In this document: positions 2,998 through 42,300 of the stretch, piece after piece
Numbering within the stretch: position 1 is the first letter of the stretch
How the letters are laid out: each line of letters starts with the position of its first letter
Origin: Blastocatellia bacterium
GTDB lineage: Bacteria > Acidobacteriota > Blastocatellia > UBA7656
Assembly (NCBI GenBank): GCA_036277095.1
Contig: DASUNP010000067.1
Coordinates: forward strand, 67,551-131,550
DNA: 64,000 bases
Direction: 5' to 3'
Notes under the pieces: generated by a model
Database searches by the model: none
Seen by the model: the letters and a program-made list of their open reading frames with translations, nothing else
What the model was told of the DNA's origin: nothing
Position numbers and translations under genes: made by a program

Positions 2998-4182
2998 CTA
3001 TTGTGACATGCTCAAAAGCTCGTCAAAAAAGGCGAGGTGTTTTTTCGCGACGACGGGCCATCCGTAGGTCGAGCGGGCGCGATCAAGCCCCCTGCGCGCA
3101 AGCTCCGCGCGGCGCGAGCCGTCATCGATCAATTCTTCGATGGCGCGCGCCCATTCCCGCTCGTCCGATTCGCTGACGACGACGCCGGAATCCCCCACGA
3201 CGTATGGGATCTCGCCGCTGTCGCTCGCCACGACGGGCACGCCGCAGGCGAAAGCTTCGATCAACATCCTCCCCAACTGCTCGCGCCATCGCGGCGTTGT
3301 TTGACTGGGCGCGCACAACAGGTCCATAGCGTTGATGTAAGCCGGGACTTGATCGTGCTTAACGCCTGATACTACGCGGACCCTTTCGCCGTGTCTTGAG
3401 GCCCAGTCTCGCAGGTATCGCTCAAGCGGCCCCGCCCCGACAAAGAGCGCACGCCACGGCGCACAAACGCGATCGAGCGCGCGCGTCAGTATGTGCAATC
3501 CCTTCTCGGAAACGAAGCGACCCAGATAACCCACTACGGGCGGCCCCGCCTCGTCCCAGCCGAGCCGTGTGCGTATCTCGCTTCGGGCTTTCGTGTCGGG
3601 GTAGAAGCGAGCGAGGTCGACGCCCGGCGGGATGACGCGCCGCGCCTTGCTCAGGTAGCAGCGGCGGCTGGTCAAGGTCTGCTCTATCGTCTCCCCGAAT
3701 GCTATCCACCCCGAAGCGCGGCTCATAGAATACCGCTCGATCCAGTTGAAAGGCGGCGGGTAGCTCTTAGCGATATTTTGAAACGTCGCGTAGACCAGTA
3801 TTGCCTTAGCCGGCGACCACCGTGCGACCTGCCCTCCTGCGAATATGAAAGGCTCTTCCCAGCAATGGACGACGTCCCAGTCGTCATCGAGTATCGCGCG
3901 CAACTGCCGCCCGTAAAGCATCGCGTGTATGCGGCGGCTGAAACGCACGGGGACGACTTTGAGCCGAGAGGCTTCGCCGGGAAAAGTCTCCAGGCGAACG
4001 GGCCGAAGGTCGCCGTAAAAAAATGACGGGGCGACGGCTGTGACCTCCCAGTCGTCGCCGCCTGCTAAGGCCATCTCGTGCGCGAGCCTCCGGTTGAGCG
4101 CCACGCAGTAAGAATGCGCTATCGAAATTAGCCGCCGCTTTCTGCCCATAGGAACGTAGTGAGAATTGAGGGAATCATTCAA
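2998..4182 (-). CDS. GT4 family glycosyltransferase
   Basis: 394 aa; EAFACGVPVVASDSGEIPYVV motif. Confidence 0.8.
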   Translation of the reverse strand: MNDSLNSHYVPMGRKRRLISIAHSYCVALNRRLAHEMALAGGDDWEVTAVAPSFFYGDLRPVRLETFPGEASRLKVVPVRFSRRIHAMLYGRQLRAILDDDWDVVHCWEEPFIFAGGQVARWSPAKAILVYATFQNIAKSYPPPFNWIERYSMSRASGWIAFGETIEQTLTSRRCYLSKARRVIPPGVDLARFYPDTKARSEIRTRLGWDEAGPPVVGYLGRFVSEKGLHILTRALDRVCAPWRALFVGAGPLERYLRDWASRHGERVRVVSGVKHDQVPAYINAMDLLCAPSQTTPRWREQLGRMLIEAFACGVPVVASDSGEIPYVVGDSGVVVSESDEREWARAIEELIDDGSRRAELARRGLDRARSTYGWPVVAKKHLAFFDELLSMSQ

Positions 4183-4234
4183 AGTCGAGGTGCGCTGATA
4201 TTACTCACGGCGTTCCATGTTCACCAAATCACTG

Positions 4235-5047
4235 CTAGCAGACCTCTTTACGCCGTGCGTAAAGTAGCCCTAACTTGTCATGATCTCGCTTGCTGGGGCG
4301 TACCTGACAGACAAAGCCAGATGCCTCTAAAACGCTCTTGCATCGTGTTAGCGCGCCCGCACAAAGGTAGTCATGATATTCGAGGGCTACGCACTTAATC
4401 TTGCTTAGAGTCGAGTGCGTGGCCCCTTCTAGCAGGTCGGCTTCAGCCCCTTCGATATCGATCTTAAGCAATTCAACTGCTTGTCCAATCCGATCCACAA
4501 CTTCATTCAGATCGATCATCGGCACGGTAATCGAACCTTCTTCGTCTGAAAGAGCGGTTGTCCCATAGCCTGAAGCAATCACGCTAGGCACGTTTGTCCA
4601 CATTCTGAAATCAGAACGTACGCGCCCAACCGCTTCGTCGTATATCCTCACCCTATCTTTTTTGCCATTGACGATAATGTTATGGCGCAAGGTCTCATTA
4701 GTCTTGGGATTTGGCTCGTAAGCATGAATAAAAAGCTTGTCTGATTTCTTAGTACAATAGAGGGTAAATGCTCCGATATTAGCGCCGATATCAAGCACCA
4801 CGCCTTCTCTTGGAAAATCAAAGTGTTGGCTATAACACTCGTCCGCGAAAATTTCGAGCACCAGTGCTACCGGGCCATCAGCGATTGTATGGTGCAAATT
4901 TAGTCCGCAACGCAGTTGTAGTGTCGGCAAAGGGGCGTTTGAAAAATAAGGACGCCAAATCTCTTTCCAATTAACAAACCACTTCATCATTCTGAGTAGA
5001 ACCCAGTAGGAACGTAGTTTCTCAGTTATTTTGTTTGCAGGCATCAT
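4235..5047 (-). CDS. FkbM-family methyltransferase
   Basis: 270 aa; VLDIGANIGAFTLYC ... YEPNP motifs typical of Methyltransf_21/FkbM. Confidence 0.75.
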   Translation of the reverse strand: MMPANKITEKLRSYWVLLRMMKWFVNWKEIWRPYFSNAPLPTLQLRCGLNLHHTIADGPVALVLEIFADECYSQHFDFPREGVVLDIGANIGAFTLYCTKKSDKLFIHAYEPNPKTNETLRHNIIVNGKKDRVRIYDEAVGRVRSDFRMWTNVPSVIASGYGTTALSDEEGSITVPMIDLNEVVDRIGQAVELLKIDIEGAEADLLEGATHSTLSKIKCVALEYHDYLCAGALTRCKSVLEASGFVCQVRPSKRDHDKLGLLYARRKEVC

Positions 5048-27940: not shown

Positions 27941-28657
27941 TGCTAATCCTCCTGGACATCACACGATCAACGCAAAAGCTGTTGTAGCAGCTACGGGCTG
28001 GCGCATAAACCATAAATCGCCCTTTGATAATTGCGTAATAAACGTATCGCCAATAATAACCCTAACTTCGCTTCTTTATAAATAGATTAAAGCCCCGGAC
28101 AGACTGCGCCCCCGGAGGGTTAAGCCCCGAAGGGAAGCCATAGACCATGGCGAATTACGAAAGTCAAAACCTGCTCCGAGTAAAGCTTCGTGTAAGTGGC
28201 GCGAGAAGCTTCAGCATCGGCGCGTTATCGATTTGGGGGCCCAAAGCCGCGCAAGCATCGGCGATGCGGTTAAAGGGGGAACCTGGTAAGCGCCCTCCTG
28301 CGAACCTGCAAGAGTGAGATTTGAGAGGCGTCTGGCGATCGAGACCTGAGCTTAAAGCACCATCCCCGCATATTCGTTATTCAAGCTTCGGTCTGAACCC
28401 GCGCCCGCAGAAGCGCTACAAGGCCGTCGGAAATATACTAACCGCAAACTTTGCTGTCAATATAATGTGCTGACTCGGGCAGACCTACAAACCGGCTTAA
28501 AGTAGATATACTTACAACCATCGACAATACAACGGCTACGAACATGGGGCGCTAAGATAAAGGATTGCGGCAAAAGTTTTTATTGGTATAATCCGCCAGT
28601 GCGATCAGATTGTTGACACTTCAAAGGATCGCCGGCTATTGAGAGCCGCCAGCGAAA

Positions 28658-28990
28658 GTGGTTTCGCGCATCTACGCAATCCGGGAGGGCATTAAGCAAA
28701 ACGAAATGGTCATCCCTTTTTCCACGCGGATATCTATTCCGCCGGACGTGCTTGTGTCCGCGTTAGCAGGCGAGTCTGTCTTACTGAACCTGAAGAGTGA
28801 GAAGTACTTTGGCCTGGACGAAATGGGGACGCGCATGTGGGGCGCGCTTACTTCGTCCAGATCGATTCAAGAGGCGTATGAGATTCTGCTGGCGGAATAC
28901 GATGTAGAGGCCGAGCGATTGCGCCGCGACCTGAGCGATTTAATAGAGAAGCTCGCCGAGCAGGGACTAATAGATGTTCACCATGAATAA
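28658..28990 (+). CDS. lasso peptide biosynthesis B1 protein (PqqD-family RRE)
   Basis: 110 aa; PqqD-like SVLLNLKSEKYFGLDEMGTRMWGAL ... ; first gene of a B1-B2-C series. GTG start in the track; the ATG at MVIPFST is an alternative. Confidence 0.8.
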   Translation: MVSRIYAIREGIKQNEMVIPFSTRISIPPDVLVSALAGESVLLNLKSEKYFGLDEMGTRMWGALTSSRSIQEAYEILLAEYDVEAERLRRDLSDLIEKLAEQGLIDVHHE

Positions 28991-29447
28991 ATGGCGCAAA
29001 TTCATCGGACTGTCGGCACGAGAGCGATGGCTGTTGTCGCAATCGCTCGTGCTGTTGCCGTTTGCTGCGGCGGCCTTGTCTGTGATGGGGCTCAGGAGAT
29101 ATCAGAGACTGATGGATAGATTCTCGCGCGCCATTAAGCCGGATGTCGCCGGGGACGAGCGAGAGCTTCGCGACCGAGTTCGTAAGACGGCCCGCCTGGT
29201 AGAGGCGGCGAGAAGGTACGGGCCTTACCGTGCGAAGTGCTTGCCCGAATCGCTAACCCTGTGGTGGCTTTTGCGCCGGCAAGGGATCGAAAGCCAGGTC
29301 AAATTCGGCGCGCGCAAAAATGATCGCCGGATGGAAGCACATGCCTGGGTGGAGTTCGAAGGAGTTCCGCTCAACGACACCACAGATGTCATGGAGCGTT
29401 TCAAGCCTTTCGAGCCCGCCGTCCTGCCCGAGGAGTTGAAGACATAA
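28974..29447 (+). CDS. lasso peptide biosynthesis B2 protein (transglutaminase-like leader peptidase)
   Basis: 157 aa; Cys (AKCLPESLTLWWLL), His (EAHAWVEF) and Asp (LND) of the catalytic triad; 17-bp overlap with B1. Confidence 0.85.
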   Translation: MFTMNKWRKFIGLSARERWLLSQSLVLLPFAAAALSVMGLRRYQRLMDRFSRAIKPDVAGDERELRDRVRKTARLVEAARRYGPYRAKCLPESLTLWWLLRRQGIESQVKFGARKNDRRMEAHAWVEFEGVPLNDTTDVMERFKPFEPAVLPEELKT

Positions 29448-31306
29448 TGAGCGGCATTATCGGCATCGTCAATCTGGATGGCAGACCGGTCAGCCGGGAA
29501 TTGTTACGCCGGATGACAGACTTCATGGCCTATCGCGGCCCGGACGCGCAACAGATTTGGAGCGCGGGGCACATCGGATTCGGCCACGCGATGCTGCGCA
29601 CGACCAGAGAGTCAATCAATGAGCGCCAGCCTCTGAGCCTGGATAGAGAAGTTTGGATTACTGCGGACGCGCGAATCGATGGCCGGAACGAGCTGATCGG
29701 CAAATTAGAGTCTAAAGTCGCAGCCGACCTCGCAGGTGTTACGGATGTCGAGCTAATTCTTCACGCCTACAACGCCTGGGGCGAAGGATGTCTGGAACAT
29801 CTGATAGGCGATTTCGCCTTTGCGATATGGGATGGGCGGAAGCGGCGATTGTTTTGCGCTCGCGACCATTTCGGGGTGAAGCCTTTTTACTATGCGCACG
29901 TAGATAATAGTTTGATATTCAGCAACACGCTCAATTGCGTGCGATTGCACCCTGCGGTTTCGGATGAATTAAACGAGCGAGCCATCGGCGATTTCCTGCT
30001 CTTTGGTCTTAATCAAGAATTCAATACAACGACATTTGCTGACATCAAGCGTCTGCCCCCTGCCCACTACTTGCTATTGTTGGCTGGACGAAAGCAGGCA
30101 CGTCGTTACTGGACCTTACCTACGGAGGAACAAATCCGGTACAGGCGCGATGACGAATATGTTGAGCATTTCAAATATCTATTGCGAGAAGCGGTTGGTG
30201 ATAGGCTTCGCGCTAAGAAGATCGCCGTTAGTATGAGCGGTGGGCTCGATTCCACATCAGTGGCGGCAATTGCTAAAGAAGTATCATCTGAGAAACTCGA
30301 TCTGCAAGCCTTCACTATGATTTATGACAGGTTGATACCTGATCAAGAGCGGTACTATTCAGGATTAGCAGCGGAAGGGCTTGGCATCCCGATTCACTAC
30401 CTTGTATTGGACGACTATAAGTTGTATGAGCGATGGGGTTGTCCAGAACATCGTTTTCCTGAGCCGATGCATTTCCCACTGTCAGCATTCGTTTCAGATC
30501 ATCTAATGCGAATCTCATCGCACAGCCGAATAGTTCTGAGTGGCGATGGCGGTGACCCGGCACTATATTTTTCGCAGGCGTATTTTGCTCAACAGCTAAA
30601 GAGGTTTCGATTTTGGCCTGTAGCTTCGTTTATAGCGCGATACGTGCGAACCTATCGGCGGTTTCCAAAACTCGGTTTCCGCACAACGCTGAAGCGCTGG
30701 GCAGGGACTTACTTGGAGTGGAAACATCCTTATCCAATTTGGGTCGAACAGGTTTTTGCGGACCGCTACAACCTGCAAGCGAGGCTGGAATGGGTGAGCA
30801 AAGTATCAGGACCGATTCATCCGACTCGCCCGGAAGCCTATAATTTCCTCACTATGATTGATTGGCCGAACACTTTTGAGTGCGCAGACCCGGGGGCGAC
30901 ATCTATTCCGGTCGAATATCGTTATCCATTTTTTGATCTCCGTTTAGTAAGCTACTTATTGGCAATCCCTCCCTTACCCTGGTGTGCGCACAAGGAAATA
31001 GTTCGCAGGGCGATAAAAGGGTGGTTGCCGGACCCGGTGCGGCTCCGGGCAAAAACGGCCCTGGCCGGAGATCCTTACACTGAACTTATAAAGCAACCCG
31101 ATTCAGACTGTATAGATCGGTTCTCTCCGATGGCCGAATTAACCAGATATATCGATGTAAATGCCATCCCACAGATTGCTCAAGAAAAGGATCCATATAA
31201 GTTATGGTTGAATACTCGTCCAGTTAGTTTAAACTACTGGCTTCGGGATTATAGATCAGTGGGAATTGCCGCAAACAAGGAGAGTTGCTATGAAATCGCA
31301 AGATAA
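29447..31306 (+). CDS. lasso peptide isopeptide-bond-forming cyclase (asparagine-synthetase-like, C protein)
   Basis: 619 aa; AsnB-like N-domain (MSGIIGIV...) and PP-loop SMSGGLDSTSVAAIA; TAATG overlap with B2. Confidence 0.85.
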   Translation: MSGIIGIVNLDGRPVSRELLRRMTDFMAYRGPDAQQIWSAGHIGFGHAMLRTTRESINERQPLSLDREVWITADARIDGRNELIGKLESKVAADLAGVTDVELILHAYNAWGEGCLEHLIGDFAFAIWDGRKRRLFCARDHFGVKPFYYAHVDNSLIFSNTLNCVRLHPAVSDELNERAIGDFLLFGLNQEFNTTTFADIKRLPPAHYLLLLAGRKQARRYWTLPTEEQIRYRRDDEYVEHFKYLLREAVGDRLRAKKIAVSMSGGLDSTSVAAIAKEVSSEKLDLQAFTMIYDRLIPDQERYYSGLAAEGLGIPIHYLVLDDYKLYERWGCPEHRFPEPMHFPLSAFVSDHLMRISSHSRIVLSGDGGDPALYFSQAYFAQQLKRFRFWPVASFIARYVRTYRRFPKLGFRTTLKRWAGTYLEWKHPYPIWVEQVFADRYNLQARLEWVSKVSGPIHPTRPEAYNFLTMIDWPNTFECADPGATSIPVEYRYPFFDLRLVSYLLAIPPLPWCAHKEIVRRAIKGWLPDPVRLRAKTALAGDPYTELIKQPDSDCIDRFSPMAELTRYIDVNAIPQIAQEKDPYKLWLNTRPVSLNYWLRDYRSVGIAANKESCYEIAR

Positions 31307-31421
31307 AACAACTGCGAAGAAAGATTATAATACCCCCAAGCTGTTCATCTATGGAAATATTTCTCAGCTCACACAGAATATAACCGACATGGGGATGAAT
31401 GATAACCCGACTATGAAGACT
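31290..31421 (+). CDS. lasso peptide precursor (A peptide), 43 aa. It is absent from the ORF track (under 60 aa).
   Basis: MKSQDKTTAKKDYNTPKLFIYGNISQLTQNITDMGMNDNPTMKT. The leader fits the lasso consensus Y-x2-P-x-L-x3-G-x5-T-x exactly (Y13..T28-Q29). An AAGGAG RBS lies 8 nt upstream. The gene overlaps the C gene's 3' end by 17 bp. Predicted core NITDMGMNDNPTMKT, with Asp9 as ring acceptor. Confidence 0.7.
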
Positions 31422-31483
31422 TAGCAGTTCGTTGCTCATCACAGATAGCATCTGAAGCTGCTCAATGTCTATTCGTTAAGATC

Positions 31484-32509
31484 ATGTATTTGGCCTATTC
31501 CCTTTACGGCTTGTGCCTGCAAACTAATCTACCTCTTCCTGGCTTAATTCCCCGACCCTCTGCCTCGAAAATAGATGCTCATGTGTGGCTACAATTTATA
31601 CCAGATGCTTTGCTTGGTAAGAGTGAGACACAGGCAAAGCTTGTGTATGCCAGCCAAAATCAGGATGAACTTGGAGAGCCTGTGCTGAAAGCCTGGGAGC
31701 TAATGGACGGGAGCTTTTTCCGGCTGCGTTACAGCGATGGGACGGAGTTCGTTATCGACCGCGAAGGTGCTCAGATATGGTGCACTTGGCCGGATAATTT
31801 AACGATTGAGGACACAACCGTTTATCTTCTTGGTCCAATATTCGGATTTGTACTACGTCTTCGCGGAACGCTCTGCTTGCATGCAAGCGCTATCGCCGTA
31901 GGAGAATATGCAATCGCAATTGTAGGTCCCGCCGGGACTGGAAAATCTACAACCGCCGCAGCGCTTGCGAAGTCAGGATTTCCAGTATTGACAGATGATG
32001 TATTAGCGCTTACCGATATGGATGGCATATTTATGGCTCAACCCGCCTATCCGCACCTGCGCTTATGGCCGGCATCAGTGAATATCTTATATGGTAAACC
32101 GGACGCCCTGCCGAGATTGGTGCCGGGGGATTCATTATGGGATAAACGCTACCTGAATCTCACCGAGAATGATTATATGTTTCAACGCCATCCGCTCCCT
32201 CTCGCGTCAATATACCTGTTAAGCGAACGCACTGAAGATTCAGCAGCTCCATTTATCGAATCAATGTCTGCAAGCGCCGGCTTGATGACTCTTGTTACGA
32301 ATACTTACGCGAACCATCTTCTGAATACTTCGAGGCGCGCCCAAGAATTTGGCTTACTGAGCCGCATCGCATCCAGCCTGCCGGTGCGACGAGTAATACC
32401 TCATGCCAGCCCGTTCTTTCTGTCAAAACTCTGTGAAGTGATCATCAATGATTTTCATCAACAGGTTGAATCGAATAGAATGAGCACGGCGGAAGAAGCG
32501 CAACTCTGA
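31484..32509 (+). CDS. HPr-kinase/phosphorylase-like kinase (lasso precursor kinase homologue)
   Basis: 341 aa; P-loop GPAGTGKSTTAAALA followed by the LTDD motif typical of the HprK C-domain; this family is known in phosphorylated lasso clusters (paeninodin type). Confidence 0.7.
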   Translation: MYLAYSLYGLCLQTNLPLPGLIPRPSASKIDAHVWLQFIPDALLGKSETQAKLVYASQNQDELGEPVLKAWELMDGSFFRLRYSDGTEFVIDREGAQIWCTWPDNLTIEDTTVYLLGPIFGFVLRLRGTLCLHASAIAVGEYAIAIVGPAGTGKSTTAAALAKSGFPVLTDDVLALTDMDGIFMAQPAYPHLRLWPASVNILYGKPDALPRLVPGDSLWDKRYLNLTENDYMFQRHPLPLASIYLLSERTEDSAAPFIESMSASAGLMTLVTNTYANHLLNTSRRAQEFGLLSRIASSLPVRRVIPHASPFFLSKLCEVIINDFHQQVESNRMSTAEEAQL

Positions 32510-32569
32510 ATAAGTAGTGCCTGAAATACGGCGCTGTGATTCTTCAGCAGAGGAAAGCTTTTTGTTGTA

Positions 32570-33193
32570 GTGAGACCAAAGATGCCGGACTCTGATTTTT
32601 TCACTCGCTTCGGATTCTTTGCGGTCAAAGGTTTTCTTGACACGCGATTATGCGCAAGATTTCGATCCGAGATGCTTTCAACTGCACTCTCCCCCACAAC
32701 GGTCGTAGACGCCTACACATCTCAAGACATGCTGAAAGAGAAGGTCCGCAAAAGTTTGCATGCGGAAGTCTCTCAATCATCCACATTGCTTGTAAAAGAG
32801 CGTTTGATGGCTCTAAGGGGAAAGCTGGAGAATCATTTTGAGTTGTCGTTCGACAGTTGCGAGAAGCCACAGTTCCTGGTTTACAAAGAAGGAGGCTACT
32901 TTCAACCACACAGGGATGGGGAAGACGAAGCCGGCAAGCCTGAATATATTAAGAGCCGCCAGATATCTATAGTTGTATTCTTGAACCGAGAGTCTGACAG
33001 GCCCGCGCCCAATGCATACTGCGGCGGGGCGCTGACGTTCTACGGGTTGATAGATGATCCTAAGTGGAAAAGGTATGGCTTTCAATTGAAGGGCGAAACG
33101 GGGATGCTGGTTGCCTTCAGGGCGGGGGTCCTTCATGAAGTCACGACCGTTACACACGGAACACGTTGCTCGATTGTTAGCTGGTTCTTCTGA
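32570..33193 (+). CDS. 2OG-Fe(II) oxygenase superfamily protein
   Basis: 207 aa; HxD (FQPHRDGED) ... distal His (VLHEVTTVTHG) facial triad; P4H/PhyH-like. Confidence 0.65.
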   Translation: MRPKMPDSDFFTRFGFFAVKGFLDTRLCARFRSEMLSTALSPTTVVDAYTSQDMLKEKVRKSLHAEVSQSSTLLVKERLMALRGKLENHFELSFDSCEKPQFLVYKEGGYFQPHRDGEDEAGKPEYIKSRQISIVVFLNRESDRPAPNAYCGGALTFYGLIDDPKWKRYGFQLKGETGMLVAFRAGVLHEVTTVTHGTRCSIVSWFF

Positions 33194-33223
33194 TTTCAAC
33201 CTATAGTAAACTGAGAAGTCATA

Positions 33224-34393
33224 ATGTATAGCATCACCAGCTATGGCAAGATGATTGCCGACCATGTACGCACAGAGGCTTATGCGCATGCTTTGCGTCG
33301 GGCGATAAAGCCCGACTCGGTCGTCCTCGATATCGGAACGGGGATAGGCATCTTTGCGATGCTGGCCTGTCAATTCGGCGCGCGACGAGTCTATGCCATT
33401 GAGCCGGATGATGCCGTCCAGGTTGCGCGAACGATCGCCGCAGATAACGGCTTTGCCAACCGCATTGAGTTTATTCAAGAACTCTCTTCTCGTATCACAT
33501 TATCTGAGCGAGTCGATCTGATCGTCTCTGACTTGCGGGGCGTGCTGCCTTTGTTTCGTCATCACATTCCGTCAATCATCGATGCTCGAAAGCGCTTCCT
33601 TGCTCCAGACGGCATACTGATACCACAGCAAGACACTTTATGGGCGGCAGTGTCGGAAGCCCCGGATCTGTATGAACGCTATTCGACGCTCTGGAGCGAT
33701 AATGCTTATGGGCTTGACCTCGGCGCAGCCCGGCGATTAGCGGTTAACACCTGGCAGAAAGGCCGAGTCGCCTCCGATCAGCTTTTAACGCCTCCTCAAC
33801 AATGGGCTACGCTCGATTATTATTCTATAGAGAGCGCCAACATCAGCGCTGAAATGATCTTTACCGCGATGCGCGCGGGGACTGCTCACGGCTTGAGCCT
33901 GTGGTTCGACGGCCTGCTCGCTGAAGGAGTGAGTTTTTCGAACGCTCCCGGCCAGCCCGAATTAATCTATGGCAGCGCCTTCTTCCCATTCTCTTCTCCC
34001 GTAACGCTGGCCGTCGGCGATAGAGTCTCCGTTAAGCTTTCGGCAGACCTCGTAGTCGATGATTACGTCTGGCGGTGGAATACTCAGGTGGCGGGTCAGG
34101 GCGATGAGATCAAAGCCGATTTCAAACAGTCTACTTTCTTCGGCGCGCCGCTGTCTCCGAATCAACTGCGCAAACGAGAGAGCAGCTATGTCCCTGCGCT
34201 TGATAAAGAGGGGCAGATCGACCGGCTCATCCTTTCTCTCATGAACGGGCAGAATTCTCTAAGCGATATTGCTCACACAGTTGCAACTGATTTCCCGGAC
34301 CGCTTCAAAAGCTGGCAGGATGCGCTGAACCGCGCAGGCGAGCTCTCTGTTAAATACAGCAACCGGTCCGGCCTCTCTCATGCTTCGCAATGA
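33224..34393 (+). CDS. PRMT-fold (protein arginine N-methyltransferase-like) class I methyltransferase
   Basis: 389 aa. MIADHVRTEAYAHAL and VLDIGTGIGIFAMLACQFGARRVYAIE align with PRMT motif I/post-I. The double-E loop is replaced (SDLRGV instead of SEWMGY). Confidence 0.65.
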   Translation: MYSITSYGKMIADHVRTEAYAHALRRAIKPDSVVLDIGTGIGIFAMLACQFGARRVYAIEPDDAVQVARTIAADNGFANRIEFIQELSSRITLSERVDLIVSDLRGVLPLFRHHIPSIIDARKRFLAPDGILIPQQDTLWAAVSEAPDLYERYSTLWSDNAYGLDLGAARRLAVNTWQKGRVASDQLLTPPQQWATLDYYSIESANISAEMIFTAMRAGTAHGLSLWFDGLLAEGVSFSNAPGQPELIYGSAFFPFSSPVTLAVGDRVSVKLSADLVVDDYVWRWNTQVAGQGDEIKADFKQSTFFGAPLSPNQLRKRESSYVPALDKEGQIDRLILSLMNGQNSLSDIAHTVATDFPDRFKSWQDALNRAGELSVKYSNRSGLSHASQ

Positions 34394-35589
34394 AACCGTC
34401 AAGTCGCGCAGTCTCCGGCATGATCTCTGAACACGAGTTGCTCGTATGCTGCGCCCGGACATATCTGGATTCTAAGAGCGCCGCGCGCGTTGCCGCGCTC
34501 GTTCAACAGCGAATAGACTGGGATTACCTGGTCCGAGCGGCTACACATCACAGCCTGCTTCCGCTCCTGCACTCACATCTGAGCGCAATCTGCCCCGATG
34601 ACATTCCCGGCGCCGCCTCCAACCGGCTCAAAGAGCATTCTCAGAATAACAGCAGAAACAGTCTTCTCCTCACAGGCGAGCTGATTAAGCTTCAACGGCT
34701 TTTTCAGTCTCAAGATATTCCGATGGTCCCGTTTAAGGGGCCGATCCTGGCCGCCTGTTTCTATGGCGATGTAGGGCTCAGGCAGTTTAGCGACCTCGAC
34801 CTGTTGGTCCGCAAACAGGACGTGTTCAAAGCCAGGGATATTCTCATCTCTGCTCAATACCTTCCGCGCTACCGGTTGGGCGCGACGCAACGGGCGGCGA
34901 TGGTCGAGCAAAAGTGCGAGGAGCCCTTTGACCGGGACGATAACGCTGCGACGGTCGATCTACACTGGGCAGTTATACCAACGCGATTCTCTTTCGCGCC
35001 CGATATCGCCTCGATATGGCAGGGGCTTGAGCGAGTCTCGCTCAGCGGCTGCGAGTTTCTGACGGTCGCGCCCGAAGATCTGATTATGCTGATCTGCATA
35101 CATGGCGCAAAGCATGCCTGGGAGCGATTGGGCTGGATATGCGACCTGGCGGAGTTGATTCGCGCCCGCAGAAGTTTGGATTGGAACTCAGTCATCGAGA
35201 CGGGAAGACGAAGCGGCGGCCAAAGAATTCTTTCTCTCGGTCTTTTCCTGGCGAGCGATCTGCTGGATGCGCCGCTCCCGCCGGGAGTTTTCGAAAGCGT
35301 GCAATCTGATAGACAGGTCCGGTCGCTTGCGGCGAAAGTTTATTCGAATCTCTCGCGCAGGATTGATAGACAGATAAGTGTCTTTGAAAGGGACCTGTTT
35401 TACCTCCAATCCATGAATCGCGTAAAGGATCGCGCGCATTTACTGTCGGACCATATAAAGCCGACGCCTCTCGAATGGCAGATGGTGCCGCTGCCCCCGT
35501 ATCTCTCCTTCTTTTATTATCCGCTGCGCCCTATCAGGATAATCGAGAAACACTGGCAGAGTTTAACTAAACGCATGTTATCGAAATGA
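34390..35589 (+). CDS. nucleotidyltransferase-family protein (PF14907-like 'uncharacterised NTP transferase')
   Basis: 399 aa; FSDLDLLV motif; ATGA overlap with the methyltransferase; this family co-occurs with kinases in lasso clusters. Confidence 0.6.
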   Translation: MKPSSRAVSGMISEHELLVCCARTYLDSKSAARVAALVQQRIDWDYLVRAATHHSLLPLLHSHLSAICPDDIPGAASNRLKEHSQNNSRNSLLLTGELIKLQRLFQSQDIPMVPFKGPILAACFYGDVGLRQFSDLDLLVRKQDVFKARDILISAQYLPRYRLGATQRAAMVEQKCEEPFDRDDNAATVDLHWAVIPTRFSFAPDIASIWQGLERVSLSGCEFLTVAPEDLIMLICIHGAKHAWERLGWICDLAELIRARRSLDWNSVIETGRRSGGQRILSLGLFLASDLLDAPLPPGVFESVQSDRQVRSLAAKVYSNLSRRIDRQISVFERDLFYLQSMNRVKDRAHLLSDHIKPTPLEWQMVPLPPYLSFFYYPLRPIRIIEKHWQSLTKRMLSK

Positions 35590-35668
35590 GACTGGTCAAA
35601 CCTACTCGTTGAATGTACATTGGTGATCCGAAAGCACGCGCCATGCGCCCTTAAATTAATTCGCAGAC

Positions 35669-37495
35669 ATGACGACTACCACGGCATCAATTAACAGAAT
35701 TTTTATCGCCACTTTGCTCGGCGAAATGTCGTGGAGAGTGGTCCTGGTCCTTACGCTCATGCTCTCGCTCGGCCTTATCGAAGGCATCGGGCTGATACTT
35801 CTAATCCCTCTGCTTGGGCTCACGGGCATAGATGTTCAACAAGGCGCGGTCGGCGCAATCGATAGCTTCGTCGCGTCAGCTTTCAATGTCGCGGGCCTGC
35901 GCCCGACTCTCATGTCTGTGCTGGCCGTTTATGTCGCAATCACAATTGCTCACTCGCTCTTACAACGCTGGCAAACGGTGAGCAGCGCTTCGCTTGAAAA
36001 CGAATTTGTAGATCGTCTCAGGCAGCGGCTCTATAAATCGATCACGAATGCGAACTGGCTATTTTTCTCCAGGTCGAAAGCTTCCCATTTCACTCACGCG
36101 CTCACTTCGGAGCTTGACCGTGTAGATATCGCAACCTATAGCCTGCTTGCCATAGTCGTCAACTGCGTCGTCGCCTCAGTCTACATAATCCTGGCTTTGC
36201 GTTTGTCCGTGCCGATGACGGTGCTGGTCTTCGCTTGCGGAGCGGCGCTCCTGCTCCTGCTTAAAGGCAAGATGCGAAAGGCGCGTTTGAGCGGGGAAGC
36301 TCTCTCTGATGCGACAGGGGAGATGCACTCTTCTTCGCTGGAGCACTTCGGCGGCATAAAAGTGGTGAAAGCCTATAACGCCGAACGGCGCAATATAAAG
36401 ATCTTTTCGGAGTTGACCCGTCGCGTCACGCGCATCTACGACGCCTACACGCGCGACCATGCGAATATGAAACTCTGGTTCGACGTGGGCGCTGTGCTTG
36501 TCCTGGCGGTGATTCTTTACGTCTCCATAGGGGTGGCTTCTATGCCCGCGGCGGGCGTGCTCGTCTTGATATTCCTGTTCGCGCGCATCATGCCAAAGCT
36601 CTCAACCATACAGCAGAACTATCAGCGTTACGTTCACGCGCTGCCTGCGTTCGCTGCCGTGATGGATGTAGAATCGCGCTGCCTGGCGGCATCCGACCCG
36701 GCGCCTACAGATACAGAGCCTGTGCAGTTCCGGCAGTCCGTGAGGCTCGACCGCGTAGATTTCGAATATGAGCCTGGCGGGTTTCGATTACAGGCGCTTG
36801 ACCTGACAATCGCATTCGGCGATATGACGGCTATAGTCGGCCAATCGGGCGCGGGCAAAAGCACTATAGCAGACCTTCTCCTGGGCCTGGTCGCACCCGG
36901 GCGAGGCCGTGTCTTGATCGATGACGCCGTTTTAGAAGCAAAGCTCATTAAAGGCTGGCGCGACCAGATCGGCTACGTTGCGCAGGACACTTTCTTATTT
37001 CACGACACGGTCAGGGCCAACCTGCTATGGGCGCGGCCCGAGGCAACCGAGCAAGAGTTGTGGGATGCGTTGAGGCTCGCGGCGGCAGATGAGTTCGTTA
37101 AGGATTTGCCTCAAAGACTTGAAACAGTCCTGGGCGATCGCGGCGTGAGGCTTTCGGGCGGCGAGAGACAACGAATAGCATTGGCGCGCGCGCTGCTGCG
37201 CAAGCCGCAGCTCTTGATACTTGACGAGGCCACGAGCGCGCTCGATTCAGAAAATGAAAAGCGCATACTCTCTGCCATAGAAGAGTTGCACGGCCGTCTC
37301 ACTATACTCGTCATTGCCCACAGGCTCTCTACAATCAGAACAGCGGATCACATTTATCTTATCGAACGGGGCAGATTGATCGAACACGGAGATTGGTCTT
37401 CGCTCATCACCAGGGAAGGCGGCAGGTTTCAAGCCTTCTTTAAGGCGCAGAACCTTGAAGTTGTCCCTGACACACAGAAGGTTTCTTATGATTGA
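35669..37495 (+). CDS. ABC transporter, fused permease/ATPase (lasso exporter D)
   Basis: 608 aa; 6 TM N-domain; Walker A GQSGAGKST; signature LSGGERQRIALARALL; Walker B LILDEATSALD. Confidence 0.85.
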   Translation: MTTTTASINRIFIATLLGEMSWRVVLVLTLMLSLGLIEGIGLILLIPLLGLTGIDVQQGAVGAIDSFVASAFNVAGLRPTLMSVLAVYVAITIAHSLLQRWQTVSSASLENEFVDRLRQRLYKSITNANWLFFSRSKASHFTHALTSELDRVDIATYSLLAIVVNCVVASVYIILALRLSVPMTVLVFACGAALLLLLKGKMRKARLSGEALSDATGEMHSSSLEHFGGIKVVKAYNAERRNIKIFSELTRRVTRIYDAYTRDHANMKLWFDVGAVLVLAVILYVSIGVASMPAAGVLVLIFLFARIMPKLSTIQQNYQRYVHALPAFAAVMDVESRCLAASDPAPTDTEPVQFRQSVRLDRVDFEYEPGGFRLQALDLTIAFGDMTAIVGQSGAGKSTIADLLLGLVAPGRGRVLIDDAVLEAKLIKGWRDQIGYVAQDTFLFHDTVRANLLWARPEATEQELWDALRLAAADEFVKDLPQRLETVLGDRGVRLSGGERQRIALARALLRKPQLLILDEATSALDSENEKRILSAIEELHGRLTILVIAHRLSTIRTADHIYLIERGRLIEHGDWSSLITREGGRFQAFFKAQNLEVVPDTQKVSYD

Positions 37496-37742
37496 CACGT
37501 GTAGCACTCGAAGATAGAATAGCGCCGCGTCTTTAAAGGCGCCGGTCGTCACGTTGATCTCATGACAGTGACTTCATCGCATGGCCGAATCATAAAACAA
37601 CTCCTCTCATCACTCCATCCCCAGTAACGAAATCAAATACCAGCACGACGATGCCGGTCTGTCATCAGACGGATTCGACGGCCCGTCCACCATCAGCCGC
37701 AGCCTGTACAGACCCCAGAACGAAATTGCAGGAAGGAATTCC

Positions 37743-38225
37743 ATGAGAAGAGAACCGTTCATGACGTTACCCCTGGCGAGAAGAGACGGGTTGTTAGTTC
37801 GGGAGATGAATGAAGAGATGCTGGTCTATGACCTGCAACGACATAAAGCGCACTGCTTGAACCGCCCCGCCGCTCTGGTATGGGGCCACTGCGACGGAAA
37901 GGCTAGCGTGGCTGAAGTGGCGCGGCTCGTCGGAGAGAAGATAGGAACACCGCTTGACGAAGAGACGATCCGCCATGCCTTAACTCAACTCGATCGGGCG
38001 GCGCTGTTAGAGAGGCGGATAACGCAAGCCGGTAACACTAGAAGATTATCCCGCAGACAGGCAGTGCGCAGATTGAGTGCGGCTGCGGTGGCCGCCGTGC
38101 CGATTGTGACAACCATCGTTGCGCCGCAGGCGGCAGAAGCCGCGACCTGTACACGCGCCGGGGAGACGTGCACAGGGCTGCCCTGCTGCGGCAGCGCTAC
38201 GAGGTGCTTTGTCGGCAGGTGCTAA
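37743..38225 (+). CDS. PqqD-like (RRE) domain protein with a hydrophobic/Tat-like segment and a C-terminal 6-Cys tail
   Basis: 160 aa. LVYDLQRHKAHCLNRPAALVWGHCDGKASVAEVARLV matches the PqqD fold. Then SRRQAVRRLSAAAVAAVPIVTTIVAPQAAEAA, followed by TCTRAGETCTGLPCCGSATRCFVGRC (C-x6-C-x4-CC-x5-C-x4-C). Confidence 0.5.
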   Translation: MRREPFMTLPLARRDGLLVREMNEEMLVYDLQRHKAHCLNRPAALVWGHCDGKASVAEVARLVGEKIGTPLDEETIRHALTQLDRAALLERRITQAGNTRRLSRRQAVRRLSAAAVAAVPIVTTIVAPQAAEAATCTRAGETCTGLPCCGSATRCFVGRC

Positions 38226-38234
38226 CTCTATTCA

Positions 38235-39323
38235 ATGAATAACAGCCTTGCACAGTCTCGGGGAAGTCAGATCGCCGCCGTGCTCGCAGGCTCATGGCGC
38301 GACCATCCCCCGCCCTTGAAAATATCGGGCGGCCAATTGGCCGAGATAACTTCGGCATTGCTCGCGACGGGGACCGCGCCCCTTTGTTGGAGGCGTCTTC
38401 TTCATTCTAAAACGGAAGCGCGCGCAGCCTTAGAGTTAAAAGCGGCTTACTACTTTCACACGATTCGGGCCGCCTACCACGAATATGAGGTCGAGCAGGT
38501 CTTCCGGCTGCTGCGTGCAGCGGGCTTAGAGCCCGTGCTGATGAAAGGGTGGGCCGTCGCACGACTTTATCCCGAATCGGGGCTCAGGCCATACGGAGAT
38601 GTAGACCTTTTCATCAGGCCCCGCGAGCGCCGCAAGGCTGCGGCTGTTTTAGCGAGCAATGAAGGCGTGAAACTTAACGTAGACATCGAGCATGAAGAGT
38701 TTGCCTGTGTGAGCGACCGGGCGGCGGATGATTTATGCGCTCGCTCAAAGCTTGTGACGCTGGGCGAAACGCATGTTCGCATTCTCGGCGACGAAGACCA
38801 CCTGCGTATGCTCTGTCTGCACACGCTCAGACATCACGCATGGCGACCGCTGTGGCTCTGCGACATAGGCGTTGTGGTCGAATCTTTGCCGGAAGGTTTC
38901 GATTGGGAGATCTGTCTTGGCGCAAACAAGAGGGAAGCCAACTGGGTCGCCTGCCTGGTCGAGCTGGCGAGCCAGGTTCTCGGCGTCCAACCGCGCGGTG
39001 ATTTTGTGTCGCGCGCCTCGTCGAAGCTGCCGCGCTGGGTCGGGCCCGCGCTTCTAAGAGACTGGGGCAGGTGGCACGGCCCGGGACCTGCGGAGTTGGC
39101 AGCCACGGCGTTCGTGAAGAATGTCAAAAGCCCCTCTCGAATGATTGGCGAGATCATCTCCAGGTGGGATCGCCCGATCAAGGCTACGGTCGAGATGCGA
39201 GGTCCGTTCAATCAATTTCTAAGACTTCCCTTTCAGATCTCTTACGCTCTTTCGCAGACTCCGAGGATCGCCCGACAGGTCGCGCGCGGTTTCTGCAAAG
39301 GGCGAACAGCGGAGGAGCAATGA
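38235..39323 (+). CDS. nucleotidyltransferase-family protein (second PF14907-like paralogue)
   Basis: 362 aa; YGDVDLFIRP motif; 9 bp after the RRE-Cys ORF; its stop overlaps the next gene as ATGA. Confidence 0.55.
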   Translation: MNNSLAQSRGSQIAAVLAGSWRDHPPPLKISGGQLAEITSALLATGTAPLCWRRLLHSKTEARAALELKAAYYFHTIRAAYHEYEVEQVFRLLRAAGLEPVLMKGWAVARLYPESGLRPYGDVDLFIRPRERRKAAAVLASNEGVKLNVDIEHEEFACVSDRAADDLCARSKLVTLGETHVRILGDEDHLRMLCLHTLRHHAWRPLWLCDIGVVVESLPEGFDWEICLGANKREANWVACLVELASQVLGVQPRGDFVSRASSKLPRWVGPALLRDWGRWHGPGPAELAATAFVKNVKSPSRMIGEIISRWDRPIKATVEMRGPFNQFLRLPFQISYALSQTPRIARQVARGFCKGRTAEEQ

Positions 39324-42300
39324 ACAATATTATTTCGCGTTCTATTCGACTCTCACTGGTTGCGGCCTTCTTTATGCTGTCTGCGTCTTCGCCCGCCAAG
39401 GCCCAGATCAGTCTTCCAACTGCATCGCCTTACACACAGAGTTTTGACAGCCTCTCGACATCTGCCACGGCCACGCTGCCTGCGGATTGGAGGGTTGATA
39501 AGATAGACGGGCTCGTCAGGACGGTCGGAAGCTTCACGACGGCAGGTACGGTGACCGAGCAGATCGCCGGTAACGGCATGGCTGTCAATGCAGCTAACGG
39601 CATTTACAACTATGGCGCAGGCGTGGCGAATACAGCGACTGACAGGGCAGCAGGCTGGATCTCATCCGGCACTGCTACGAGAAGCGGAAATCTGTACGCC
39701 CGGTTTATCAACAGCACTGGCGCGAGCGTTTCAAGCCTGAGCATCTCTTACGACATTGAAAAGTACCGTAATGGATCTAACACGGCGGGTTTCAGAATCG
39801 AGATGTTTTATTCATTTGACGGGGCGACCTGGACTGCGGCCCCGGCTAACTTTCTAACAAGCTTTCCAGCCGACGCAAACAACAACGGATTTGCAAGCGC
39901 CCCCGGAGTGATTGTTTCACTCACCAACCAGGTTCTCCAGGTCACAATACCAAACGGCAGCGACTTTTACCTGGCCTGGAACTACTGCGTCACCTCCGGG
40001 ACGACAACGACGAATGCGCAGGCGCTGGGCATCGATAACTTTTCCGTCATAGTCAACACCGTCACAGCGGTCGAGCTTCTTTCATTTACTGCTTCTCAAT
40101 CGGGCGATGGAGTATTGCTCGAATGGGCGACCGGGCATGAAGTCGATAATCTCGGCTTTAACATTTATCGAGAGGACGGGGGCAAGCGCGCTCGCATCAC
40201 CCCTCGGATCGTTGCGGGGTCGGCCTTGCTCGCCGGGTCCGGCAATGCTTTGACGGCCGGGCGGCAGTACAGATGGTTTGACCCCGCCCCCGGCATCGAA
40301 GGCAATATCGATTACTGGCTCGAAGACATAGACCTTAACGGCAAGGTTACGCTGCACGGCCCGATCACGCCCGCGCCCGGCGGTAAGCTATCTCTCAGGT
40401 CCGACTCGCTTCCGCTTTCGAGCGTACAGACTGATACGAGAGCGTGGCAGCGACAGGTAGTTGTTTCGAATGTCGGTAAGAATTCTCATCCGCATTCGGC
40501 TCAAGAATCTTTGAACAGTCTCCAGACCCAGTGGGAAATTGCGGCGGGCCCTGCCGTGAAGATCACGATCAAGAAAGACGGGTGGTACCGCGTGACCCAG
40601 CCCGCCCTCGTAGCCGCCGGCCTGGACCCGTCGCGCGACCCGCGCCTGCTAAGGCTGTTCGCGGACGCCGAGGAAGTGCCGATCATCGTCAGAGGCGGGC
40701 AGAAGGGGAGGCTTGAGCCGACAGACGTAATAGAATTCTACGGCGCGACGCTCGACACGCCCTCCACAGACAGGCGCGTCTACTGGCTCACGTCCGGCAA
40801 TCAGCCGGGCCGCAGAATAACCATTCTGGCGGGAGAAGCCGTCAAACCGACGGGTGGGGGCAGCTTCCCCTACACAGTCGAGAGAAAGGAGCGCAGCGTC
40901 TACTTTGCGGCGTTGATAAACGGGGAGGCGGAGAACTTCTTCGGCCCAGTAGTCACAGCCGATCCGGTCGCTCAGGAATTCCGGATCGAGAACCTCGACA
41001 AGGGATCGACCGACAAAGCCAGGCTCGAAGTGGCCTTGCAAGGCGTAACCGATGTCACAAATGTTGCGCCCGACCACAGCGTGAAAGTGAAGCTCAACGG
41101 GGTAGAGATAGGCTCTGTCGCCTTCGACGGGCAGGCGCGCAAGATTACCGAGATAATCTTCTCTAATCAATTGCTGCTCGAAGGATCAAACGACATCACG
41201 CTTGTCGCCGAAGGCGGCGAGATGGACGTGAGTCTGATAGATCACATCAGGCTCACCTACGCGCACAGATTCCGCGCGGACGGGGACGCGCTCGAACTGA
41301 GCGCCATCGGCGGAGAGCCGATAACCGTAACGGGCTTCAGCCAGCCCGCAATCCGGGTATTCGACATCACTGACCCGAACGACGTGCAAGAGATGACTCC
41401 AATAGTCGAAGCGCAAGGATCTGAATTCGCCATCACCTTCAGGGCGAATGCTTCGGGCGAGAGGCGGCTCCTCGCCCTGGTCGACCATCTTGCGCAAGCG
41501 CCTTTCACAGTCACGGCCAACCGGCCTTCGACTTTGAACCGCGCGGGCAACGGGGCGAATTTTATCATCATCACGCACGGCCTATTCGCCGCCGCGATGG
41601 AGCCGCTAAAGCGATTGCGGCAGGGCCAGGGCTTGAGCGCGACTATCGTCGACGTGGAAGATGTCTATGACGAGTTCAGCCACGGGGCGCACTCTCCGCA
41701 GGCAGTAAAAGATTTCCTGGCGCGGGCCGCGACCGTTTGGAAGAAGCGGCCCGGCTGGGTGATGTTTGCCGGGGACGCCAGCTTCGACCCGAGAGACTAT
41801 CTCAATCTGGGTGAAAGCGACTTCGTGCCGACGAAGCTCATAGACACGTCCGGGCTTGAGACGGCTTCGGACGACTGGTTGGCAGACTTCGACTCTGACG
41901 GATTGCCCGAGATGGCTGTGGGCCGCCTGCCCGTGCGCACTGTCGGCGAGGCCGGAGCGGTAATAGAAAAGATCATGGGCTACGCTCAGGCGGGCAGGGC
42001 CGAAGGCGCGTTGATGGTTGCCGACCGCAACGACGGGTATGATTTCGAGGCCGCAAGCCTGAGCGTGAAAGCGCGACTTCCTGCCGACGTAATCGCGCAG
42101 GAGGTCTTTCGGGGGAGGGTAGACGACGCGACGGCCAGGCAGCAGATCATTGACGCGGCCAGGCGAGGTCCTAAGATTGTCAACTACCTCGGGCACGGGT
42201 CGGCTGGGACATGGAGAGGGGACCTGTTGACATCGTCGGATGCCGCCGCTCTTCAGAATTCAGAGGGGCCATCGTTATTCGTGATGATGACGTGCCTGAA

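Follow-up and report, generated by a model that had tools for sequence, protein, structure and literature searches.

Lasso peptides are known to carry only a few secondary modifications, and the beta-hydroxylation of aspartate by CanE is the sole enzymatically proven hydroxylation in this class. Reviews up to 2026 list only beta-hydroxy-Asp in canucin A, made by CanE, and 7-hydroxy-Trp in RES-701-2/-4, in keeping with the rarity of hydroxylated lasso peptides stated in an earlier, sequence-based prediction for the locus described here (the original prediction). The locus lies in a 64,000-nucleotide stretch of DNA from a Blastocatellia bacterium, a soil acidobacterium (GenBank assembly GCA_036277095.1, contig DASUNP010000067.1, positions 67,551 to 131,550 of the forward strand; hereafter the window) and encodes, within a lasso peptide gene cluster, a 203-residue 2-oxoglutarate (2OG)- and Fe(II)-dependent oxygenase (32582..33193, + strand). 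This protein appears to be a tailoring hydroxylase for ribosomally made peptides that are modified post-translationally (RiPPs), one that comes from another enzyme lineage, and has another predicted target, than those known; the candidate target is a proline, and proline hydroxylation is undescribed for lasso peptides. Literature searches that combined lasso peptides with hydroxyproline, with prolyl hydroxylases, with PF13640 or with an HPr kinase plus an oxygenase turned up no earlier description, which is weak evidence given their incomplete coverage.

Several described systems resemble parts of this locus. CanE, from the canucin cluster of Streptomyces canus, is likewise a 2OG-dependent tailoring oxygenase of a lasso cluster, and acts on the linear precursor with the help of the B1 RiPP recognition element (PMC9266682), the same timing as is proposed here. 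By its description CanE is set apart in hydroxylating a C-terminal Asp, whereas precursors of the window type end in [KR]-T(-x), and neither Asp nor Asn in them is associated with the oxygenase gene; a C-terminal Asp occurs in none of the lasso-type precursors recovered, and the window core ends in K-T. The prolyl 4-hydroxylases (P4H) of the prolyl hydroxylase domain (PHD) type, such as PPHD acting on EF-Tu, PHD2/EGLN1 and the Dictyostelium PhyA-type PHD, share with the window enzyme the HxD...H triad with its Arg and a single domain of ~200 residues, at a template-modelling (TM) score of ~0.7. Their peptidyl-proline substrates are on folded housekeeping or signalling proteins and their genes are not in RiPP clusters, whereas the substrate predicted here is a leader-tagged core of 15 residues. 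CorC, of the corallotide graspetide cluster, is both a PF13640 protein and a RiPP tailoring enzyme, as here, but it forms 5-hydroxylysine on the already cyclised isopeptide Lys and is confined to Corallococcus (PMC13097080); here Lys shows no association with the oxygenase gene, and action before cyclisation would be expected. The YbiX/PiuC enzymes of the PKHD type (3dkq, 9qn0) belong to the same superfamily, and 3dkq is the best PDB match at the sequence level, but their genes are linked to iron uptake and not to peptide clusters. Finally, paeninodin-type clusters (PadeK/ThcoK) share the split B1/B2, the cyclase C, the HPr-kinase-like kinase, the nucleotidyltransferase, the ABC exporter and a conserved hydroxyl residue near the precursor C-terminus; review accounts of them do not mention an oxygenase, and the subgroup described here has a PrmA/PRMT-like methyltransferase in addition, while a minority of its clusters also carries the oxygenase.

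The open reading frame (ORF) of the window oxygenase extends over 32570..33193 on the + strand and encodes 207 residues from a GTG codon or 203 from the ATG at 32582. Since all full-length homologues open with MPxxDFF, the ATG is most likely the true start, as judged from the aligned sequences. The deposited NCBI gene call (P0001, 173 residues) is too short, since it begins with an internal Met and thereby loses 30 conserved residues of the N-terminus, and an antisense ORF (32813..33478, -) found no support. Among 5.8 billion protein clusters searched, 83 relatives came up, including a 100%-identical entry from a Blastocatellia metagenome-assembled genome (MAG). When phmmer was run exhaustively against 1.84 billion cluster representatives, 256 matched at E<=1e-30, which places the gene well outside what chance would give, and 809 had E<=1e-10. 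These proteins of ~200 residues are a small, distinct and uncharacterised family.

The window protein matches PF13640 (2OG-FeII_Oxy_3) at E 8.1e-13, with 49.6 bits against a cut-off of 27, and PF13661 more weakly; PF13640 is matched by 24 of 24 family members. Four residues are invariant in the 24-sequence alignment: His110 (codon 32909-32911), Asp112 (32915-32917), His185 (33134-33136) and Arg195 (33164-33166) in the 203-residue frame, or H114/D116/H189/R199 in the 207-residue frame. The last is the 2OG-binding Arg ~10 residues past the distal His. We regard it as virtually certain that the gene encodes a real 2OG-Fe(II) oxygenase; the ORF and HxD...H triad of the original prediction are upheld with the start moved to 32582. 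The profile assignment proposed there as a check gave PF13640 and not PF05721. Models of the AspH/PhyH/TauD type (PF05118, PF05721, PF02668) gave no match to the window protein at E<=0.01, and this assignment was rejected; PhyH is weakly matched by two of the 24 relatives. A halogenase is ruled out by the HxD triad. Orthology to YbiX/PiuC was likewise rejected, as the NCBIfam PRK05467 equivalogs scored 30.3, 23.9 and 19.1 bits against cut-offs of 143, 180 and 336.

The structure that AlphaFold predicted from the family alignment reached a mean pLDDT of 89.8 and a pTM of 0.87. Foldseek of this model against the PDB gave 505 matches at E<=1e-3, and the top 50 listed were all 2OG oxygenases, which assigns the modelled protein to the double-stranded beta-helix fold. 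The best match was Pseudomonas putida PPHD (4iw3; E 1.5e-11, TM 0.72), and ranks 1-11 were made up of PPHD, DdPHD, CrP4H and vCPH (Dictyostelium PHD and the Chlamydomonas and PBCV-1 P4H), with PHD2 also among the top matches and PiuC, PolD and OGFOD1 lower. At the sequence level, the family profile matched 3dkq (E 5e-8), PPHD (1.5e-7) and the algal P4H (1e-6). The modelled fold is of the PHD/P4H prolyl hydroxylase type (HIF/EF-Tu-type).

To define the genomic context, 185,579 species genomes were scanned with an alignment of 11 closer sequences as query, which gave 31 loci with a relative, and the window's cluster proteins were compared by tblastn with the fetched flanks (loci are cited below by L numbers). 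A lasso cyclase was found within these flanks in 22 of the 31 loci, 21 of them with a full-length oxygenase and L031 with a remnant only, and most also held the kinase. The 22 loci belong to Acidobacteriota, Cyanobacteria, Binatia, Actinomycetota and Bacillota (a Heliobacteriaceae MAG). The three closest relatives (67-82% identity) stand in fully syntenic clusters next to the same adjoining Wzz/GNVR gene as in the window. A metagenome scan with an 11-sequence kinase alignment recovered 450 relatives, from which 80 loci were kept; a single kinase sequence as query had given nothing. The usual order in these loci is cyclase, precursor, kinase and methyltransferase, the cyclase being seen where upstream sequence is present. 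The oxygenase occurs in just seven of the 80, directly after the kinase in each, and the methyltransferase directly follows the kinase in most oxygenase-free loci. Because only this minority of loci with close kinase relatives carries it, the oxygenase is accessory or optional. Lasso-linked members occur throughout a neighbour-joining tree of the oxygenases, with the window enzyme grouped with the kinase/methyltransferase-linked L001, L033, L035 and L045. We therefore consider it highly probable that the family member in the window is a dedicated but optional lasso/RiPP tailoring enzyme. The placement within a kinase-type lasso cluster that the original prediction had claimed is borne out by the cluster gene matches and this conserved context, and its spacing is exact: the kinase stop at 32509 leaves 60 bp to the ORF at 32570, and 30 bp separate the oxygenase from the methyltransferase ATG at 33224.

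The candidate substrate is a 44-residue precursor (31290..31424, +) that carries the leader motif YxxPxLx3Gx5Tx, with homologous precursors in the same place in L001, L033, L112, L114 and L115. Its leader, MKSQDKTTAKKDYNTPKLFIYGNISQLTQ (31290-31376), fits the motif exactly and is followed by the 15-residue core NITDMGMNDNPTMKT (31377-31421), in which N1, D4, N8, D9, N10 and P11 read from the codons as originally claimed; the ring acceptor Asp9 is encoded at 31401-31403 and Pro11 at 31407-31409. Precursors were found by the leader motif, and clustering of their cores at 60% identity left 18 with and 18 without the oxygenase. Proline is present in all 18 cores with the oxygenase and in 11 of the 18 without (Fisher p 0.008), and it lies no more than five residues after the ring Asp in 16 versus five (Fisher p 0.0005); neither p-value is adjusted for the testing of 20 residues or for relatedness among the loci, and the distance criterion was picked after the data had been inspected. 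Proline is the sole amino acid that differs between the two sets; the tails of oxygenase-free cores are often Gly-rich (…DGGGGAAAGPKTG). In the subclade of the window (NITDMGMNDNPTMKT; L115 NVDNLGNMDNPTMKS; L112 NVTNTMNADNPPGNMKT; L114 NITNTMTADNPPGNMKT; L033 NVTDTMTVMDNPSMKT; L001 TNTQKNTKDAPSNKT), D-[NA]-P and M/N-K-T/S are conserved, and D4 and N8 are variable. N10 is replaced by Ala in L001, and by Ser or Gln, or is missing, in other clusters. A second lasso clade (L011, L030, L116, L117) always has Pro, in cores such as GGGGKIPSIVADPGEARKTVPSG. Some lasso clusters hold two oxygenase paralogues (L116, 7001-9622; L011, 5991-7224), and their cores have two to three prolines, as in GGGGKIPSIVADPGEARKTVPSG.

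Two further contexts bear on the target. In two Rokubacteria loci, a small ORF (L029, 2886-3038; L028, 9545-9751) whose leader matches the lasso-type motif perfectly (W..P.L...G.....T.) immediately precedes an oxygenase homologue. The leaders read …PWQTPRLVVHGTVTVQTL and …PWKTPRLVEHGTITVRTL, and the cores, AATGPVPPSG (L029) and GSGAVPAPAPPP (L028), are made of A, G, P, S, T and V only, with no Asp, Asn, Glu, Lys or Arg. No cyclase, B2 or PqqD gene was found within 10 kb of these orphan peptides, and their neighbours look, from ORF translations only, like SDR, luciferase-like and CorA genes. In the Heliobacteriaceae lasso cluster (L031) the oxygenase is a pseudogene (3834-4072) that retains N- and C-terminal fragments of 39 residues and has lost the HxD-bearing middle; both precursors of this cluster are Pro-free. 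Beside the remnant is a 152-residue ORF (4110-4568) that looks IS200-like on the evidence of its translation alone. No residue type other than proline is shared by all the putative substrates. By comparison of these sequences, we put the chance that the enzyme is a prolyl hydroxylase targeting Pro11 of the core at about even. Of the two plausible targets named in the original prediction, Pro hydroxylation is thus favoured by the comparative evidence, and beta-hydroxylation of Asp/Asn is disfavoured by the variation of D4, N8 and N10 and by orphan cores that have neither residue.

A number of observations weigh against assigning core proline as the target. Identity to solved prolyl hydroxylases is low (15-22%), and membership in PF13640 does not dictate proline, as CorC and its 5-hydroxylysine illustrate (PMC13097080). 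The 11 oxygenase-free cores with Pro include a D-N-P in L039, so the association of Pro with the oxygenase is one-directional. The leader Pro (YxxPxL) is invariant and is a possible target too, and approximately eight homologue loci (e.g. L014, L018, L026, L027, L118) have no RiPP context. Hydroxylation of this leader Pro, or another 2OG reaction such as desaturation, oxidative cleavage or the oxidation of some other residue, for instance Thr or Met, is unlikely in our assessment; 2OG oxygenases are chemically versatile and the residue assignment is correlative, but a leader target would leave unexplained both the core-Pro link and the Pro-free cores beside the decayed gene, no further residue is common to all putative substrates, and halogenation is excluded by the triad. 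CorC also serves as the precedent for a Lys/Arg hydroxylase, here acting on K14 beside the probably phosphorylated Thr, and precursors from clusters of this type conserve a [KR]-T close to the C-terminus. This motif is equally frequent without the oxygenase, however (Lys in 12 of 18 cores with and 15 of 18 without, not significant; Arg in 12 and 11), basic residues near the C-terminus are absent from the orphan cores and from L036, and the top structural neighbours are prolyl and not lysyl hydroxylases, all of which makes the proposal quite improbable.

Beta-hydroxylation of a core Asp or Asn (N10, the ring Asp9, D4 or N8), as by CanE or AspH, has in its favour that the only characterised lasso 2OG hydroxylase yields beta-hydroxy-Asp, that the window core is rich in these residues, and that D-[NA]-P is kept across the five closest relatives. 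It is nonetheless rather unlikely, given the PHD/P4H-like fold and the missing matches to Asp/Asn hydroxylase, TauD and PhyH models, an Asn content (16 of 18 cores with the oxygenase, 13 of 18 without) that does not differ significantly, the presence of Asp in all cores of both sets, and a C-terminal Thr where the CanE substrate has Asp. A different substrate altogether may be considered in the PqqD-domain Cys-rich protein encoded further downstream (37743..38225, +), through the Pro of its LPCC motif. In two Pyrinomonadaceae MAGs, an orthologue of this PqqD-Cys gene (L007, 8728-9219; L025, 1946-2515) is directly followed by an oxygenase of the same family, and a lasso cyclase is not found close by; the LPCC motif does not vary among three aligned proteins, those beside oxygenase homologues included, and the window has one oxygenase copy only. 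The oxygenases linked to PqqD-Cys genes form a separate clade, however, whereas the window enzyme is in the lasso/kinase/methyltransferase-linked group; the kinase-oxygenase-methyltransferase placement is identical in loci without a PqqD-Cys gene, and a promoter-like site at 37492-37520 suggests that this gene is a separate transcription unit, so we rate it very unlikely as the true substrate. That a housekeeping or unrelated oxygenase (an EF-Tu or ribosomal prolyl hydroxylase, or YbiX/PiuC) is in the cluster by chance is suggested by database names of homologues ('YbiX' or 'SM-20-related') and by the loci without visible RiPP genes. Near homologues that lack lasso context (L013, L014, L017, L018, L026, L027), a search for lasso-type leaders gave chance matches only, and the neighbours look non-RiPP. 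The check for orthology to a housekeeping hydroxylase came out negative, with YbiX equivalogs far below their cut-offs and ~20% identity to PPHD, and the chance reading is already contradicted by the conservation of gene context, with repeated placement in lasso clusters across phyla and decay where the substrates are Pro-free; it is extremely improbable.

The results above establish the enzyme class, its catalytic residues, its fold and its conserved placement in lasso clusters. For hydroxylation of Pro11 we propose a mechanism in which the target residue, regiochemistry and timing are inferred. Fe(II) would be held by His110, Asp112 and His185, with the C5 carboxylate of 2OG bound by Arg195, and O2-dependent decarboxylation of 2OG would generate an Fe(IV)=O species. 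This species would hydroxylate ring carbon C4 or C3 of Pro11 and yield hydroxyproline (+15.995 Da). Pro11 lies two residues past the ring Asp9 and would be in the short loop or tail that follows the predicted 9-residue ring. The enzyme would most likely work prior to leader removal and cyclisation, on the linear precursor that still bears its leader and is presented by the PqqD-type B1. Linear precursors are the substrates of the characterised lasso tailoring enzymes CanE, ThcoK, StspM and MslH, of which CanE and MslH are aided by B1 (PMC9266682, PMC8498205). We favour the same behaviour here because of this precedent and because, in L008, L016 and L119, the gene directly upstream of the oxygenase homologue is an additional PqqD gene.

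The lasso gene string of the window (28658-37495) is entirely on the + strand with short gaps and includes B1, B2, C, the precursor and the oxygenase together. B1 (28658..28990) is a PqqD-type RiPP recognition element, or leader-binding chaperone (PF05402, E 2e-17; NCBIfam lasso_PqqD, 1e-16), B2 (28974..29447) a transglutaminase-like leader peptidase (NF033537 lasso_biosyn_B2, E 4e-27, above cut-off), and C (29447..31306) the asparagine-synthetase-like lasso cyclase (NF033535, E 1e-120; PF00733). The HPr-kinase-like precursor kinase (31484..32509) has weak HprK matches, and its 450 metagenome relatives were confirmed by tblastn; its probable phosphorylation site is the conserved [KR]-T at the C-terminus of the precursor. 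The oxygenase is followed by the PrmA/PRMT-like methyltransferase (33224..34393; PF06325, 2e-11; PRMT_C, 3e-8), which in clusters of this type commonly accompanies the kinase, an NTP_transf_5 nucleotidyltransferase-family protein (34390..35589; PF14907, E 2.5e-61) and the ABC exporter D (35669..37495; PF00005 and PF00664). The methyltransferase resembles neither the PIMT-like nor the C-terminal carboxyl enzymes reported for lasso peptides; it follows the kinase in most of the loci L032-L111, where most cores have a conserved [KR]-T close to the C-terminus and, once cyclised, lack a free N-terminus. In the closest relatives, an extra gene of 129-184 residues (589 in L115) with no Pfam match stands between oxygenase and methyltransferase (L112, 6853-7242; L113, 1805-2359; L114, 6710-7213; L115, 6529-8298), at the position of the 30-bp gap of the window.

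The G+C content of the lasso cluster is 0.48-0.54, against 0.57-0.60 in the flanks (28000-40000 compared with the flanks), which hints at foreign origin. Despite this low G+C, the position of the cluster beside a Wzz/GNVR polysaccharide co-polymerase gene is also found in related MAGs (L112, L114). Positions 1-28000 are taken up by a long minus-strand gene string; a Wzz-like gene together with GDP-sugar enzymes, at 23.4-27.9 kb, suggests a polysaccharide cluster. A promoter and terminator scan found a single strong, near-consensus promoter-like site, that at 37492-37520, and no usable operon boundaries besides it.

Downstream of this site, the PqqD-Cys protein (160 residues; PF05402, 1e-4) has an N-terminal PqqD-like domain, an internal segment of SRR plus hydrophobic residues (TAT/Sec-like) and a C-terminal module with six Cys, C-x6-C-x3-LPCC-x5-CF-x4-C, whose loop lengths differ in homologues. 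It is paired with a second NTP_transf_5 protein (38235..39323, +; PF14907, 7e-28), a pairing also seen in L007. The PqqD-Cys gene may represent a RiPP-like system in which one protein combines the recognition domain with the knottin-like substrate it serves; alternatively, the protein is possibly a second substrate. Elsewhere, a PqqD-oxygenase gene pair stands beside further PqqD genes and a UPF0489/TPR protein (L008, 8116-13297; L119, 6664-14546), accompanied in L119 by two annotated radical S-adenosylmethionine enzymes and in L008 only by a truncated CxxxCxxC ORF at the contig end, which suggests a role for this oxygenase family in a RiPP-like cluster of non-lasso type as well. Pfam gave no match for the 276-residue ORF after the L007 oxygenase or the 203-residue ORF beside that of L008. 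One metagenomic protein (P0177, 304 residues) has a nitrile-hydratase-like (NHLP) leader (NHase_alpha and Frankia_peptide matches) ending in ...AWGG in frame with an oxygenase homologue, either a gene-call read-through or a true join to another type of RiPP leader. Inspection of the longer homologues for PqqD fusions found none.

Taken across these contexts, it is conceivable, at somewhat less than an even chance, that the enzymes constitute a bacterial family of leader-guided RiPP prolyl hydroxylases, portable between scaffolds and with the window enzyme as its founding example. Such a family would serve lasso peptides of at least five phyla, short linear Pro-rich peptides with a lasso-type leader but no cyclase in Rokubacteria, and secreted PqqD-fused Cys-knot-like modules in Pyrinomonadaceae. 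The prediction for the window is a simple one, as the 15-residue core has a single proline and the expected shift is +16 Da. If it is true, hydroxyproline would be a new modification in the lasso class, and a leader-directed proline hydroxylase of ~200 residues would be useful for peptide engineering. The family, a few hundred sequence clusters that currently go under the names 'YbiX' or 'SM-20-related', would also gain a function.

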